Shown: piece by piece, positions 1 through 5,409 of the stretch | Layout of the letters: every line of letters begins with the position of its first letter | Numbering within the stretch: position 1 is the stretch's first letter | Origin: Sphingopyxis sp. | GTDB taxonomy: Bacteria > Pseudomonadota > Alphaproteobacteria > Sphingomonadales > Sphingomonadaceae | Direction of reading: 5' to 3' | Length of the DNA: 64,000 nt | Assembly: GCA_016793775.1 (NCBI GenBank) | Contig: JAEULK010000011.1 | Coordinates: forward strand, 2,686 to 66,685 | Notes under the pieces: model-generated | The model's database searches: none | What the model saw: only the letters and a program-made list of their open reading frames with translations | Told to the model about the DNA's origin: nothing | Program-made: the position numbers and the translations under genes

Positions 1-798
1 ATGCGGCAGCGTTTCGGCCTGTCTGGGATATACAACGCGACCTATCGACCGTTCTCGGTCGAACACGCGCCTCTTGGCTTCCTCAAGCGCGCGCGCGGGG
101 GCCTCGGTCCAGATGTGGGGTGCCTTCGCGTCGCCAATGGAGAAAAGCCAAAGGAAGGGAATGCAGGTCACTTCCATCGCGGGAAGCTTGCCAACGTTAG
201 TGACCTCGGCCCTCACATGAGCGCTGATAAAATCGCCATGGGTTTCACTATGCCTCAGTTCGTATCGATCAACATTTACGTTGTTTATCTTCACCCATGG
301 GCGCTGAGCCATGCGCGCAATATCGTTGGACTGAATAACGGCAAGCGCGTTTTTCTCAGCGATTCCCAGCGCATCCCCAGCCCCCTTGGCGGCCTCCTGA
401 GCGATTTCTACCGTTCTTTCAGTCGCCACGGCAGCGCGCTTCGCATACCAGGCGGCGGCAATGGCAGCGCCCATGGTGAAAGCGCCGAGGACGAGGCCGA
501 CGCCACCAAGCACGACTTGCCACCAAGACCAATGGGAACTGTCATAGGCAGCGTCAGCCGCTTTCCACTGGGCGCAAAGATCGGACTTGCGGTCATCGCG
601 GCCACGCTCGCAACCCTCATCTGGGCGCGGGGAAATTGGCTGTTCTGGGGCAGCAGGATCGGTGGGCGCGGCCTTGCTGGTTACGGCCTTGGCAGCTTGG
701 GGATTTTCGCTCTGAGCGCCGCCCTGTTTGCTTGGGCTAGCCCCTACTAAGGCTAGTCCCGCAACACCAATGAGGATGCACCTATAGCCTCTAAGCAT
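1..798 (-). CDS. Membrane-anchored hypothetical protein, 3'-truncated by the window edge (absent from the ORF track)
   Basis: Hand translation from ATG at 798 is open to base 1: MLRGYRCILIGVAGLALVGASP (signal-like)...DLCAQWKAADAA...WSWWQVVLGGVGLVLGAFTMGAAIAAAWYA (TM)...QRPWV...VTNVGKLPAMEV. The track's 1..750 + ORF is its antisense shadow. Confidence 0.75.
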   Translation of the reverse strand, partial: MLRGYRCILIGVAGLALVGASPSKQGGAQSENPQAAKAVTSKAAPTDPAAPEQPISPRPDEGCERGRDDRKSDLCAQWKAADAAYDSSHWSWWQVVLGGVGLVLGAFTMGAAIAAAWYAKRAAVATERTVEIAQEAAKGAGDALGIAEKNALAVIQSNDIARMAQRPWVKINNVNVDRYELRHSETHGDFISAHVRAEVTNVGKLPAMEVTCIPFLWLFSIGDAKAPHIWTEAPARALEEAKRRVFDRERSIGRVVYPRQAETLPH

Positions 799-992
799 TG
801 CAGCATGAACGCCGCTGAGAAGCCGCCCCGGCTGATCTTGTTGTTAAGGTTCCGCTCGTTCTCTGTGACGCCAACCGACGCCAGCTTTTCCGCAAGCTGC
901 GCATAGGTAACCCCCCGCCTTTTCAGCTCGCCTTTTAACAAGTTTTTGGCGCGAGTCTCATACTCAACGGTGGCAGGATCGGCCTTCGCCAT
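753..992 (-). CDS. DUF6471-like small HTH transcriptional regulator
   Basis: 79 aa, LLKGELKRRGVTYAQLAEKL...NLNNKISRGGFSAAF. XRE-like HTH, divergent from the transposase. Confidence 0.8.
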   Translation of the reverse strand: MAKADPATVEYETRAKNLLKGELKRRGVTYAQLAEKLASVGVTENERNLNNKISRGGFSAAFMLQCLEAIGASSLVLRD

Positions 993-1085: not shown

Positions 1086-2060
1086 ATGACAATGACCACC
1101 AAAGGCCAACATTTCCTCCTCTCTGCCAAGGCTCGCACTCTGAGCCTCAAGGCTGTTTTCACCATGGGCGAAGAGGGCGCCTACAAGACGTTCTGCCAGA
1201 TGCGCTGGCCTGAGACGGACGGCGAGGCTGTGTGCCCGCGCTGCGGCTGTGTCGAAACCTACGACATTGCCACCCGCCGCAAGTTCAAGTGCGTTGCCTG
1301 TCACCACCAGTTCTCGGTCACCAGCGGCACGATCTTCGCCAGCCGCAAGCTGGGCTTCGTCGATCTTCTCGCCGCAATCGTCATCTTCGTGAACGGCGCC
1401 AAGGGCATTGCTGCCCTGCAACTGAGCCGCGATCTAGATTGCCAGTACAAGACCGCCTTCGTGCTTACCCACAAGCTGCGCGAAGCAATGGCGCGTGAGC
1501 AGATGGGTCGCCAGCTCGACGGCATTGTCGAAATCGACGGCGCCTATTTCGGCGGCTACGTGAAGCCGGAAAACCACAAGGACGACCGCAAGGACCGCCG
1601 TCTGGTCGCCAACCGTTCGGGCAAGCGCCAGTGCGTCGTCGTGATGCGCGAGCGCGGCGGTAAGTCGCTTCCCTTCGTCGTCGCCAACGAAGGCGACGCC
1701 GTTCCTTACGTCCGCGATCATGTCGCCAACCTTGCCGTTCTCCACGCCGACGAAGGCACCGGCTGGGATGCCCTCCACGCCGGTTGGATGACTGAGCGCG
1801 TCAATCACTCGGTCCAGTTCTTCGACAAGGGTGCATGCACCAATCAGGCCGAAAGCTATTTCAGCCGCCTTCGCCGGATGGAAGTCGGCACCCACCACCA
1901 TATCGCCGGTCCGTACATCGGCGCCTATGCCCGCGAAGCTTCATGGCGCGAAGATAACCGCCGCGTATCGAACGGCGATCAGGCTGCGATGGTAACGGCC
2001 GCGGCGATGGCCTCGCGCGTCAGCCGGGACTGGAAGGGCTACTGGCAGCGAACCAACTAA
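1086..2060 (+). CDS. IS1595-family DDE transposase with N-terminal Zn ribbon
   Basis: CPRCG...FKCVAC Zn ribbon, SVTSGTIF, EIDGAYFGG, ADE, NQAESYFSRLRR, YAREASWR; reading frame intact. Confidence 0.95.
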   Translation: MTMTTKGQHFLLSAKARTLSLKAVFTMGEEGAYKTFCQMRWPETDGEAVCPRCGCVETYDIATRRKFKCVACHHQFSVTSGTIFASRKLGFVDLLAAIVIFVNGAKGIAALQLSRDLDCQYKTAFVLTHKLREAMAREQMGRQLDGIVEIDGAYFGGYVKPENHKDDRKDRRLVANRSGKRQCVVVMRERGGKSLPFVVANEGDAVPYVRDHVANLAVLHADEGTGWDALHAGWMTERVNHSVQFFDKGACTNQAESYFSRLRRMEVGTHHHIAGPYIGAYAREASWREDNRRVSNGDQAAMVTAAAMASRVSRDWKGYWQRTN

Positions 2061-2455
2061 GAACAAGCGCCGAACACCATGGGAATCCGGGACACATAAA
2101 GCAGACCTTATATGCGCCTGTGCATAACGTGGTGTGCAAAATATGCTCTAAAATGCCCTCAGAGGGCACAGGAAGCGCGTTAACCAAGCGGAGTACTCCT
2201 CTTGGCATTTTTGCGATTGTCGCATCCACAGGGCTTTAAAACCGAAAATTTGGCACTCTCTTGCGACAAGTGCTTGCCTCTAAACCTGAACGGCCCTAAA
2301 CAGCAAAAGGCCCCGGACGGTGGAAACGTCCGAGGCCTCGAGAGCCCCGCGCTGGTGGCGGGGGATTTGCTATAGCGAGGGGGTTTTATACCCCGGGGAT
2401 AGCAAGGTCAACTGCCACCACGCGCATCAGAAGCGTTTTAATGGTGGAGTTCGAC

Positions 2456-2728
2456 ATGGCTACATACAACGTCACGATCTTGTGCGGCGCGTGCAAGTGC
2501 CCAGCGCAAACCGTCGCTAATCCGAAACCTCATGACAAGGTGACCTGTCCCAGGTGCAACCGAAGCGACCGTTTCGATAACGTCCATCGGACGGTGGGCG
2601 AGCATGTCCAATATGAGACTGCCCGCGCCCTCAATGAAAGCATGGCCCGCGCCACTCGCGGCAGCCGCTTCGTTAAGTTCAAGCCAAAGCACCTCCCCCA
2701 GCGGTCGTTCCGCTGGATTGCCGGCTAG
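2456..2728 (+). CDS. Small Zn-ribbon protein (90 aa)
   Basis: CGAC...CPRC pairs; GGTGGAG SD at 2443-2449 supports the ATG at 2456. Confidence 0.65.
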   Translation: MATYNVTILCGACKCPAQTVANPKPHDKVTCPRCNRSDRFDNVHRTVGEHVQYETARALNESMARATRGSRFVKFKPKHLPQRSFRWIAG

Positions 2729-2964: not shown

Positions 2965-3129
2965 TCAGGGACGAATGTTTGCGAGGCAATCCGCTGGCGG
3001 TTTTGATGCGGCCTTTTTGCGGTCCACGGACATCGACACGCCTTCGGCCTGACGATACTCGTATCGAGGCATCTTCAGATCAAAGACGACCTTAGGCCGT
3101 GCGTTCGCCCCGCTGCTCTTTTTAGACAT
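2965..3129 (-). CDS. 54-aa basic hypothetical protein coupled to the Ntn hydrolase
   Basis: GGAGG SD then ATG overlapping the last codons of the upstream gene; MSKKSSGANARPKVVFDLKMPRYEY. Confidence 0.5.
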   Translation of the reverse strand: MSKKSSGANARPKVVFDLKMPRYEYRQAEGVSMSVDRKKAASKPPADCLANIRP

Positions 3130-3970
3130 AATCTGCCTCCAAGGGGTTAAGCTTTCGATCAAAGTGATGCTTCCGTTTTATCCACTTAAAACCTTCGTGT
3201 TTCGTTACGACGCAAATGTCGGTTTCACCGCCGACGGTGTCAGCGCCGGGTAGGAAACGCACGTATGCCTTCGTTGTTTCAACCAAGAAATTTGCGAGCG
3301 CAATCGCGTCCTGTACAGGCATCGCGGGCGATATCAACGGGGCTCTGGTCCGACTTTCTATGTGGGTCAGCACCGCGTCTAAGTTTTCTGGCAACAATCC
3401 AATGTCTAAGAGCGCGTTCGGCAAAAATTGGCTGTAGCCGTTTACGATGCGGTTGATCGCTTCGGGTTGGCCGTCATAGAGGATATCAAATTCGTCCTTC
3501 CCCGCGAGGCATTCCGGCTCTGAGCACTCGCCATTCACGATCTGAATGCGCCATATTTCGCCGTGCATTTCCTTCGCGCAATTGCCCGCGATCCAGAACT
3601 GAAATTCGCTTTGCGGCTTGTCTTCCAGCTTCTGAAAATGCTCCTCAAAGAAGAACGTCCGCGCACGGTTGGCCACCTGTTCGATGGTGTAGTTTTTCGG
3701 GTCGATATGCCATTCGTCGTCTTCCGCGGTGAATCTCGCCCGAAGATCCTTGGCCAGCGTGCTAATGGAGATCGGACCGATGTTCCCCATGCCACACGTC
3801 ATCGCGGCAATTGGAAGACCCTTGCGCAGGTTGAACACCTTATTGCCGTGGGAATAGACATTGGCGATCAAGGGGCGGCCATCATCCAGCGAGGATTCAA
3901 TGAGTGATGACGCGCTATCGGCAGCAAACACGATACAGTCGTGTACTTTGACCGCGACGCAAACCGTCAT
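3122..3970 (-). CDS. Proteasome beta/HslV-like Ntn-hydrolase fold protein
   Basis: N-terminus M-TVCVAVKVHDCIVFAADS matches the Thr1...AAD pattern; GNKVF Lys; C-terminal DTVGGETDICVV; SD GAGGGGG. Confidence 0.7.
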   Translation of the reverse strand: MTVCVAVKVHDCIVFAADSASSLIESSLDDGRPLIANVYSHGNKVFNLRKGLPIAAMTCGMGNIGPISISTLAKDLRARFTAEDDEWHIDPKNYTIEQVANRARTFFFEEHFQKLEDKPQSEFQFWIAGNCAKEMHGEIWRIQIVNGECSEPECLAGKDEFDILYDGQPEAINRIVNGYSQFLPNALLDIGLLPENLDAVLTHIESRTRAPLISPAMPVQDAIALANFLVETTKAYVRFLPGADTVGGETDICVVTKHEGFKWIKRKHHFDRKLNPLEADYV

Positions 3971-4032
3971 AAATCCCCCTCACCGCCGATGAATCATAGT
4001 GTGCCGTTCATGTCAATCACTCGCGACGGCAA

Positions 4033-4467
4033 CTAACGTACCAGCTCCCATTCAAGATATTGACCGCCGCGAGTTTCAACGTTGCGAACCAATGATTGAT
4101 CGCGACGATCACGAAGGCACGTTGAGACGCGCTTGGTCATCAACCCGAGCAACTTGGGGGTCGCGGTCAATCCGCGCTGTACGATCATCTGAGCGGCAAT
4201 CTCACGCGACGTAAGCGGCTTGTTCGCAACGCGCATGATCGACAGGACGACGCGGGACATTTCGCCGCGCTTCGACCAGTCGTCGGGCGGGCGGACGAAC
4301 TTGGGGGCAATGGCGGGAATATCCAGATCGGGCGCGACCAGCTTTATCGCGGCGTCGAGCGTTTCCAGATCGCGCGCCATCTGAGCCAGCGCGTCCTGTG
4401 TCCGCGTCATCTCGCCCGCCAGTTCCGCGCGGCGCTTCACCAGCCCTGTCACCATGTAATCTGTCAT
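4033..4467 (-). CDS. Coiled-coil plus winged-helix hypothetical protein at the transposon end
   Basis: N-terminal heptads (LVKRRAELAGEM...LETLDAAIKL); C-terminal wHTH-like RVVLSIMR...PLTSREIA...LEWEL; starts 67 bp inside the terminus. Confidence 0.8.
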   Translation of the reverse strand: MTDYMVTGLVKRRAELAGEMTRTQDALAQMARDLETLDAAIKLVAPDLDIPAIAPKFVRPPDDWSKRGEMSRVVLSIMRVANKPLTSREIAAQMIVQRGLTATPKLLGLMTKRVSTCLRDRRDQSLVRNVETRGGQYLEWELVR

Positions 4468-4469
4468 GG

Positions 4470-4534
4470 TGCTACATTACGAAAAGTTCACTAGACAGGG
4501 CAGATGGTCGTTGGTGCGTTTGCTACATAATGCC
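4470..4534 (-). repeat. Transposon terminal sequence with subterminal repeat
   Basis: TGCTACATAA (4521-4530) and TGCTACATTA (4470-4479) are direct repeats 51 bp apart; terminus GGCATTATGTAGC on the - strand. Confidence 0.75.
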
Positions 4535-5260
4535 GAGCGCCTCGCCGGGATCGAGGTCGGGCAAGATGCCGGGCAGGCACGCCGCCATCAGCGACTTGCC
4601 CGCGCCGGGCGGGCCGACCATCAGCAGATTATGCCCGCCCGCCGCGGCGATTTCGAGCGCGCGCTTGGCGACCTCCTGCCCCTTGACCTGCGCGAGGTCG
4701 GCCATGCGGCGCGGCTCCTCGACCTCACCGGGGCGCGGCGGGGCGAGCAGTGCGCGGCCCTTGAAATGGTTGAGCAGCGAGAGGAGGTCGGGCGCCGCGA
4801 GCACCTCGACATTGCCCGCCCACGCCGCCTCAGGCCCCTGCGCGACGGGGCAGATCAGCCCGCGATCCTGGCTGCCCGCGTGAAGCGCCGCGAGCAGCAC
4901 CCCGGGCGAGGCGGCGACGCGGCCGTCGAGGCCGAGCTCGCCGACGACCACATAGGCGCCGATCGTTTCGGCATCGATGACGCCCATCGCGCCGAGCAGC
5001 GCCAGCGCGATGGGCAGGTCGTAGTGCGATCCCTCCTTGGGCAGGTCGGCGGGCGACAGGTTGACGGTGATGACCTTGGGCGGGAGCGACAGGCCGATCG
5101 CGGCGATCGCGGCGCGGACGCGCTCGCGGCTTTCGCCGACCGCCTTGTCGGGCAGGCCGACGACGACGAAGCGCGGCACGCCGGGGGTGATCTGGCACTG
5201 CACCTCGACCCCGCGCGCTTCGAGGCCGAGATAGGCGACGGTGGACACGATCGCGACCAT
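4535..5260 (-). pseudogene. comM: 5' half (242 codons) of comM/yifB Mg-chelatase-like AAA+ ATPase, interrupted
   Basis: GLPDKAVGESRERVRAA, VNLSPADLPKEGSHYDLPIA, VKGQEVAKRALEIAAAGGHNLLMVGPPGAGKS. After LDPGEAL it reads into the element (GIM-stop). Full ComM is about twice this length. Confidence 0.95.
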
Positions 5261-5409
5261 GGATATCCCCCAAAGCGGACCCCAAAACGGACGATGTGCC
5301 CGGTTTGTTCTCATGCCCTTTTAGGGCAAAGTCGCGCGAAGGCGAGTCTTTTCGGATGTTGGCGAAGGTGCCGCGCAGCGTGACGTTTGGGGCAAGCCCG
5401 ATTGTCGAT

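Follow-up and report, generated by a model that had tools for sequence, protein, structure and literature searches.

A 144-residue winged-helix protein as candidate target-site selector of IS1595-family transposons inserted in comM

The window analyzed here is a stretch of 64,000 nucleotides from a 3.9-Mb draft genome of Sphingopyxis sp. (contig C53, bases 2686-66685). It covers much of an IS1595-family transposon of 4825 bp, which is inserted in the comM gene and bounded by an 8-bp direct repeat, AGCGCCTC. Close to one end, this element encodes a protein of 144 residues (P0001; 4033..4467, minus strand) composed of a 43-residue helix, a linker with the motif PP-DWS-RGEM and a C-terminal winged helix. 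We propose that it probably acts as target-site selector in a family of small, site-specific IS1595-type (ISNwi1-like) transposons. This proposal comes from the comparison of sequences: the position of insertion within comM follows the lineage of the 144-residue protein and not that of the transposase. An initial annotation of the same DNA had suggested that the protein could supply comM recognition, and for the same reason we regard it as the best candidate for that role.

Related elements occupy two exact positions in comM. At site 1, the 8-bp duplication spans the same three codons (GAR-NNN-CT, encoding Glu-x-Leu) in 23 elements with complete ends, whose hosts belong to different orders and range from sphingomonads to Hyphomicrobiales-type genomes. 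In the window, the duplication lies at 4536..4543 and covers the codons for Glu-Ala-Leu (GAGGCGCT on the comM coding strand). The protein context of site 1 is LP(G/S)ILPxLxxx-E-x-L-EVSM(I/V)xS(V/L)AG, and the conserved comM bases around it read GA.G..TC.ATG.T downstream and ATCCTGCC upstream. Because many of the surrounding third-codon positions differ, the insertion position is fixed relative to the conserved flanking bases, and not by the duplicated ones. Site 2 is found ~65 codons beyond site 1, directly after the Walker B codons (LFLDELPEF), and is occupied in L082, L083, L089, L110, L132 and ~40 metagenome loci (L107-L183). Perfect 8-bp duplications flank 33 of 44 elements. The two orientations are nearly equally common (~13 versus 15 at site 1 and ~23 versus 19 at site 2), as would fit a transpososome with two identical ends. 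Tandem elements or remnants are arranged head to tail, exactly 8 bp apart, at three loci (L087, 7677-12208; L090, 5934-9509; L095, 6164-9478), which suggests repeated insertion into a duplicated target copy and a lack of target immunity.

Two further features of the site were considered and dropped. A dyad symmetry at site 1, with TCGA equidistant on both sides in this genome, was rejected since the left TCGA is not conserved in other hosts, and the motif ATCGCC, common to the comM flank and the region upstream of the 144-residue gene, is absent from the element in the window. Separately, a third comM position, around 197-201 of the comM N-terminal profile, is occupied by L091 (8326-12513). 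The transposase (45% identity) and the 144-residue protein of this element are very divergent, and its ends give no match to the repeat pattern.

Phylogenetic trees place the 144-residue protein and the transposase in different relations to the two sites. All site-1 elements (29 of 29) form one clade in the tree of the 144-residue protein (support 98), with the site-2 elements outside it. In the transposase tree, site-2 elements are scattered among those of site 1, and a smaller set rejects their monophyly (approximately unbiased test, p-AU 0.0028). A larger set comprises 44 elements in which both genes are present: 25 occupy site 1 and 19 occupy site 2. The 144-residue protein tree for this set contains a single change of site, with a support of 99.5 for the split, whereas the transposase tree contains seven and site-2 monophyly is rejected (difference in log likelihood of 246.5, p-AU 3.6e-67); one row of the set, L119, carries an unrelated transposase that forms a very long branch, and close pairs give the same conflict without it. 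A metagenome scan seeded with three site-2-type proteins returned 80 loci, including 46 full-length genes in loci with comM broken at site 2. No site-1 break was seen by eye among these 80 listed loci; the classifier had no test for site 1.

Pairwise comparisons give the same picture. Where transposases are 60-65% identical, the 144-residue proteins share 46% identity for elements at the same site and 34% for elements at different sites, whereas the corresponding values in the same pairs for the third conserved protein, DUF6471, are 60% and 61%. Elements L008 (site 1) and L110 (site 2) have transposases of 89.2% identity, DUF6471 proteins of 88.4% identity and near-identical repeats, with 144-residue proteins of 29.5% identity. 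Their DNA similarity is confined to the transposase/DUF6471 module and the ends, and stops at the module borders; as the region upstream of the gene with TAATGTCATCATATG is common to both, the exchange junction is placed at the gene start. Cargo differs even among elements at the same site, so that, among the conserved features, only the 144-residue gene co-varies with the site. With natural swap pairs of this kind (~89% identical transposases and ~30% identical candidate selectors at different sites), the hypothesis can be tested directly.

The 144-residue gene itself is very probably a core gene of the element. It was initially judged likelier to be transposition machinery than cargo, and this judgment holds up in view of its linkage to the transposase and its fixed place inside the repeat, while the intervening genes vary. 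Across ~150 related loci, it is nearly always found with an IS1595 transposase and a DUF6471 protein. At 38 loci from species-representative genomes, one layout recurs: a comM fragment, a repeat of 24-25 bp, the 144-residue gene, variable cargo, the transposase gene on the opposite strand, the DUF6471 gene, sometimes a homologue of the 300-residue variable gene described below, the second repeat and the other comM fragment. Element lengths are 3.1-5.7 kb. When 401 alphaproteobacterial genomes were sampled without bias, the family was present at 31 places in 26 genomes of 26 genera. For full-length genes that have 3 kb or more of sequence downstream, an IS1595 transposase lies at most 6 kb away in 28 of 30 cases among the genome loci and in 16 of 19 in the sample. 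The exceptions are short derivatives that lack the transposase and keep both repeats (L027, L079, L080), and comM-adjacent remnants (L029, L085). Co-occurrence with IS1595 transposases, part of a check that had been put forward, is found in nearly all related loci; rather than being equally common away from IS1595 elements, which would have spoken against the idea, the family is almost confined to them. 

The start codon is 59-94 bp from the outer end of the repeat in 37 of 43 elements, and the place of the gene just inside the repeat is kept down to ~30% identity, with the genes between it and the transposase varying. A second layout, in which the gene follows directly downstream of the transposase on the same strand, is seen in L081, L095, L097, L131-L138, L145, L170 and L184. 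The terminal position stressed in the initial annotation is thus not general. On two Skermanella megaplasmids (L187, 3989-5417; L188, 3489-4925), the homologue and an IS1595 transposase are adjacent convergent genes; in L187 the pair splits a DUF2254 gene, and on both megaplasmids the homologue is annotated as 'hypothetical protein'. These are the only two of 72,556 plasmid records that match the family. The genome of the window has a single copy of the 144-residue gene and four IS1595-type transposase genes, and the partner is found only beside that of the present element; a profile search of the whole genome gave no second match to the protein. Across a phylum-wide sample, hardly any family members fall outside Alphaproteobacteria.

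Several observations concern the periphery of the family. The short derivatives measure 1.5-2.5 kb and retain the 144-residue gene (L027, 9916-12419; L079, 8933-10436; L080, 8933-11142), and genome G388 has two short transposase-less derivatives outside comM. The three other IS1595-type transposase genes in the genome of the window are located at C37:6408-6815, C4:41133-41480 and C25:12070-12330, and one of them has an in-frame TGA. Distant family members L040 (634-1589) and L041 (1000-1608) have neighbouring genes with SocA_Panacea and Fic domains, a sign that these elements may carry passengers of toxin-antitoxin or defence type. The contigs of three distant representatives show variable neighbours only and are too short to reveal context.

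Close homologues number 278, and the family as a whole falls into 2012 clusters at 50% identity (E <= 1e-3). Searches of the 144-residue protein against Pfam and NCBIfam (E <= 0.01) and PADLOC profiles identify no family, and PDB sequences return only coiled-coil noise. An AlphaFold2 model, computed from 64 sequences, has a mean predicted local distance difference test (pLDDT) score of 88.7. It features a single helix over residues 2-44, a linker of lower confidence, in which the PP-DWS-RGEM motif is invariant, and a winged helix over 69-142 (helices 69-81, 87-97 and 104-123; strands 127-130 and 139-142) with a pLDDT of ~90. The coiled-coil/winged-helix architecture expected from the initial annotation is thus reproduced as a long helix plus a winged helix. 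Foldseek aligns the C-terminal domain with winged helices of MarR/ZitR, PadR, ArsR/SmtB, Fur/PerR and TFE over 74-77 residues, with root-mean-square deviations of 2.6-3.0 Å. As the best E value is only 1.9e-3, the match provides a fold assignment and not a family assignment. AlphaFold DB clusters contain uncharacterised relatives and generic helix-turn-helix (HTH) proteins only. The protein matches no MarR, PadR or HARE-HTH profile, and a single UniRef record has an automatic HARE-type label. Nor does it match a TniQ, TnsD or TnsF profile; its fold matches are to generic winged helices only, and at 144 residues it is far smaller than those proteins.

In the mechanism that we propose, the 144-residue protein would dimerize through its long N-terminal helix, and its C-terminal winged helix would bind conserved comM coding DNA, here next to the codons LP-x-L-xxx-E-A-L-E-V-S-M. 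So positioned, it would direct or license the DDE transposase on two identical 25-bp ends, giving a staggered insertion of 8 bp at one fixed position. Identical ends would form a symmetric transpososome and permit insertion in both orientations. A sister lineage of the protein would send otherwise similar elements just past the Walker B codons of comM. 

A number of points weigh against this reading or limit its reach. Binding to comM DNA, dimerization and contact with the transposase are steps that we infer, the second from the long helix of the model. The fold match is generic and fits any winged-helix regulator. The prediction of a complex between the transposase and the 144-residue protein, with a median score of 0.11 (mark 0.32), is evidence for neither side. 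Positions specific to each clade fall mainly in the linker (DWS-RGEM versus AFKGEVT) and do not obviously belong to the recognition helix. We named the site groups once a first set of trees was known, and elements that are related do not count as independent observations. Our mapping places the determinant in the module with the 144-residue gene, and neither in the protein itself nor in particular residues, so that a short adjacent stretch of DNA may contribute, although the repeats are near-identical between both site types. Two elements of the site-1 clade, L011 and L027, lie outside comM with perfect duplications. Genome G318 contains a near-identical pair, one copy at comM site 2 (L089, 8943-13011) and the other elsewhere (L088, 4453-9478); the latter has a perfect duplication, CAGAAATC, that partly resembles the comM duplication GAGAATTC. 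Such off-target copies mean that targeting is not absolute. Deeper-branching relatives are found at diverse sites among which no shared target was recognised, and reconstituted empty sites of the elements outside comM reveal no common target gene. Finally, a marine metagenome group (L116-L130; L129, 7953-16414) has the 144-residue gene and a diverged repeat at comM site 2, with no IS1595 transposase within 8 kb. Gene and repeat border a larger island there, with a pair of ParB/RepB-like genes, one large serine recombinase and a giant protein with a PNP_UDP domain.

The reading frame of the 144-residue gene, marked out by the initial annotation, is real, and conservation of M1, D3 and Y4 in homologues supports its first ATG; the distance to the terminus, which had been put at 67 bp from an end at 4534, is 68 bp from the outer base of the repeat at 4535. 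The terminal core TTATGTAGCA is located at 4521-4530, and the claimed second copy, TAATGTAGCA, is indeed seen at 4470-4479 on the minus strand, 2 nt short of the ATG. It contains the hexamer TAATGT, 6 nt upstream of the ATG, and no Shine-Dalgarno-like run is present, both as first described. A search for the end core with one mismatch allowed finds two sites in the window against 0.9 expected, and 22 of 100 shuffles reach two; by itself, the copy does not rise above lineage noise or chance. In none of 23 related element ends, and not in L110, does the element's own end core recur ahead of the start codon; the closest relative, L010 (transposase 96% identical), is among them and reads ...GGAAGTAAGTTCCGGCAATG. 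A wiring of the gene to the end sequence by way of this copy is thus not supported. As related elements are without it, we read the copy as a promoter-like TAATGT plus a chance AGCA. It is probably a lineage-specific accident, in which a conserved -10-like hexamer happens to be followed by AGCA.

The hexamer alone is conserved. Sphingomonad relatives have a -10-like hexamer (TAATGT, TAAGGC or TAAAGC) 6-9 nt before the ATG and no Shine-Dalgarno sequence; its context is often TAATGTCATCATATG, and often TAGATG-N17-TAATGT-CATCAT-ATG. Hyphomicrobiales-type relatives have GGAG-type ribosome sites in its place. Leaderless mRNAs are common in Alphaproteobacteria, and a leaderless transcript is plausible for the sphingomonad elements. 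A simple sigma-70 and terminator scan of 3900-4600 detects no full promoter and no terminator. Lake-water metatranscriptome contigs span the gene, the repeat and comM alike, and reveal neither the start nor transcription. In one sphingomonad subgroup that includes both site types, a conserved subterminal block, TAGATGTAATCGCC...TAATGTCATCATATG, lies within the first 70 bp inside the end on the side of the 144-residue gene, which it precedes (L005, L006, L009, L014-L016 and L110). The sequence GGCGATTAC, complement of GTAATCGCC, is found just inside the opposite end of L005, L006, L015 and L016. Both are absent from the element in the window.

Alternatively, the protein might be a regulator or transpososome accessory, which would bind the element end or promoter and control expression or assembly of the transposase, with the site chosen by the transposase or another feature of the module. 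Small winged-helix dimers are typical repressors, as the MarR, PadR and ArsR fold matches recall, and the gene stands next to the end in most elements. The end-like 10-mer overlaps the putative promoter in the window, and sphingomonad elements of either site type have a conserved TAGATGTAATCG...TAATGTCATCATATG ahead of the gene. We consider this role rather unlikely: the 10-mer is not conserved, the gene in many relatives lies directly downstream of the transposase and not at the end, and a clean split by insertion site would be unexpected when transposase and repeats show none. A function after targeting, such as target immunity, a part in excision or copy-number control, or silencing of the disrupted comM, could co-evolve with the site and would fit the strict linkage of the protein with both element and site. 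The tandem elements 8 bp apart speak against effective target immunity, and no other conserved gene explains the site, as neither DUF6471 nor the transposase tracks it; such a function appears improbable.

The remaining explanation is that the gene is passenger cargo, for instance a stand-alone transcription factor with no part in transposition. It has no annotated function, and Siguier, Gagnevin and Chandler (2009), as cited in PMC3129680, describe the extra genes of IS1595 'transporter IS' (insertion sequences) as passengers unrelated to transposition. This explanation is close to refuted, and we give it hardly any weight. Nearly all elements retain the gene, across a range of 30% to 96% identity, whereas true cargo comes and goes; the gene forms the convergent pair with the transposase on both Skermanella megaplasmids, is almost never found away from such elements, and is present once in its own genome, beside one of the four IS1595-type transposase genes.

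If the 144-residue protein is the selector, its closest functional parallel is TnsF, which in Tn6022 (Tn7-like) and Tsy elements targets comM at its Walker B motif (Faure et al. 2023, PMC10293859). In both cases, a dedicated protein encoded by the element would lead it to conserved comM coding DNA, and the selector module is exchangeable between transposition cores. The site-2 lineage inserts right after the same Walker B codons, with unrelated proteins. TnsF, a large relative of the tyrosine recombinases, works with TnsABC or a tyrosine recombinase, whereas the present protein is a helix plus a winged helix without sequence relation to it, next to a lone IS1595 DDE enzyme. No AAA+ adaptor is present here, the duplication is of 8 bp and both orientations occur. 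A similar likeness exists to TnsD/TniQ of Tn7, a DNA-binding selector that reads conserved coding DNA (attTn7 in glmS) and fixes the insertion distance. Tn7, in turn, needs TnsA, TnsB and TnsC and inserts downstream of an intact gene, in one orientation and with a 5-bp duplication. The present element interrupts the gene that it targets, its two ends are identical, and it encodes no TnsC-like protein and no TniQ/TnsD match; profile searches of its open reading frames find no TnsA, TnsB or TnsC domains and thus no sign of membership among the Tn7-like elements.

The element shows the features of the IS1595 family, namely a transposase with a zinc ribbon and a DDE_Tnp_IS1595 domain, inverted repeats and an 8-bp duplication. 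Within the family, members of the ISNwi1 subgroup (ISfinder) have ends of the form GGnnATTAT, lengths of ~1.75-4.75 kb and extra genes. The element may belong with them: its transposase domains, its 8-bp duplication, its ends (CGGCATTATG, which fit that consensus) and its extra genes agree with this general description of the subgroup, and at 4825 bp it is slightly above the size range. It differs in that one extra gene is conserved, fixed in place and tracks the insertion site. To our knowledge, no comM site specificity has been described for IS1595 'transporter IS', and literature searches (IS1595 with comM, ISNwi1, DUF6471) found no description of these elements. With the winged-helix factors (MarR, PadR, ArsR/SmtB, Fur, and the HARE-HTH label of one UniRef homologue), the protein shares the three-helix and beta-wing fold. 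The 43-residue N-terminal helix and the PP-DWS-RGEM linker are specific to its own family, and its genomic context is a transposon and not a controlled operon.

Taken as a process, protein-guided site-specific transposition is reasonably likely here, in a transposon much simpler than the known cases and without a relative of TniQ, TnsD or TnsF: the exact position is seen, and a role for the protein is suggested by phylogenetic co-variation and module swaps. Somewhat bolder, and in our view only a little better than an even proposition, is the idea of a minimal modular system in which a 324-residue transposase is guided to an exact base by a 144-residue dimeric winged-helix selector without an AAA+ adaptor, and is retargeted by natural module swaps between the two comM positions and, in deeper lineages, perhaps to other genes. 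With this, comM targeting would have arisen independently for a third time, and transposon target selectors would gain a new class. Targeting by dedicated selectors is well studied in Tn7-like elements, which depend on at least three core proteins; if our reading is correct, an insertion sequence with one transposase reaches base-exact targeting with a partner of 144 residues. It would follow that 'passenger' genes of insertion sequences can hide transposition functions. The elements would also add an independent case to the question of why many unrelated mobile elements hit comM, with one site at Walker B, as for TnsF, and would offer a compact protein pair with natural selector variants for the study of target-bound activation of a DDE transposase.

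The remaining parts of the element are as follows, with window coordinates equal to those of locus L001 (C53:1-8200) minus 2685. The terminal inverted repeat CGGCATTATGTAGCAAACGCACCAA is perfect (25 of 25 bp) and conserved in ~60 related elements. The copy on the side of the 144-residue gene is located at 4511..4535 in the window, and its partner is on the same contig, 265-289 bp before the window start (L001 7196-7220 and 2396-2420, respectively). Between them, the open reading frames encode the 300-residue variable protein, DUF6471, the transposase, two to three cargo proteins of no family and the 144-residue protein. The 324-residue transposase gene (1086..2060, plus strand), with homologues in nearly all related loci, matches PF12762 (E = 1.5e-35 over 153 of 153 positions) and PF12760 (E = 1e-13), corresponding to a DDE_Tnp_IS1595 domain and a zinc ribbon. 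Divergent from it is the gene for the 79-residue DUF6471 protein (753..992, minus strand; PF20075, E = 6e-32). The adjoining variable gene for 300 residues (1..798, minus strand) runs off the window start (L001 2581-3483) and has a homologue in some elements only.

The cargo region includes a 95-residue reading frame with CxxC motifs of zinc-binding type (2441..2728, plus strand), which gives a weak ECs_2282-family match and has its only homologue in L009; an overlapping 132-residue frame on the minus strand is an alternative reading. A 282-residue protein of no known family is encoded at 3122..3970 (minus strand), and a homologue of 43% identity adjoins the 144-residue gene in L086 (8090-8917). 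Its N-terminus (MTVCVAVK..DCIVFAADS) resembles Ntn/proteasome-type hydrolases, and PF00227 is found on 10% of the members of a related Atlas cluster; we regard this as a lead only.

Beyond the duplication, the N-terminal part of comM (4536..5314, minus strand) encodes the ChlI domain and the Mg_chelatase AAA+ domain as far as position 56. The next 141 residues are found upstream of the element (L001 1973-2395), and the rest of the gene is on contig C66. In this genome, comM has thus been hit twice. At the second break, ~141 residues after the transposon insertion, lies the gene of a 556-residue large serine recombinase with Resolvase, Recombinase and zinc-ribbon domains (L001 75-1745). The last 130 residues of comM are encoded at C66:2354-2743, and the two comM pieces share ~8 residues.

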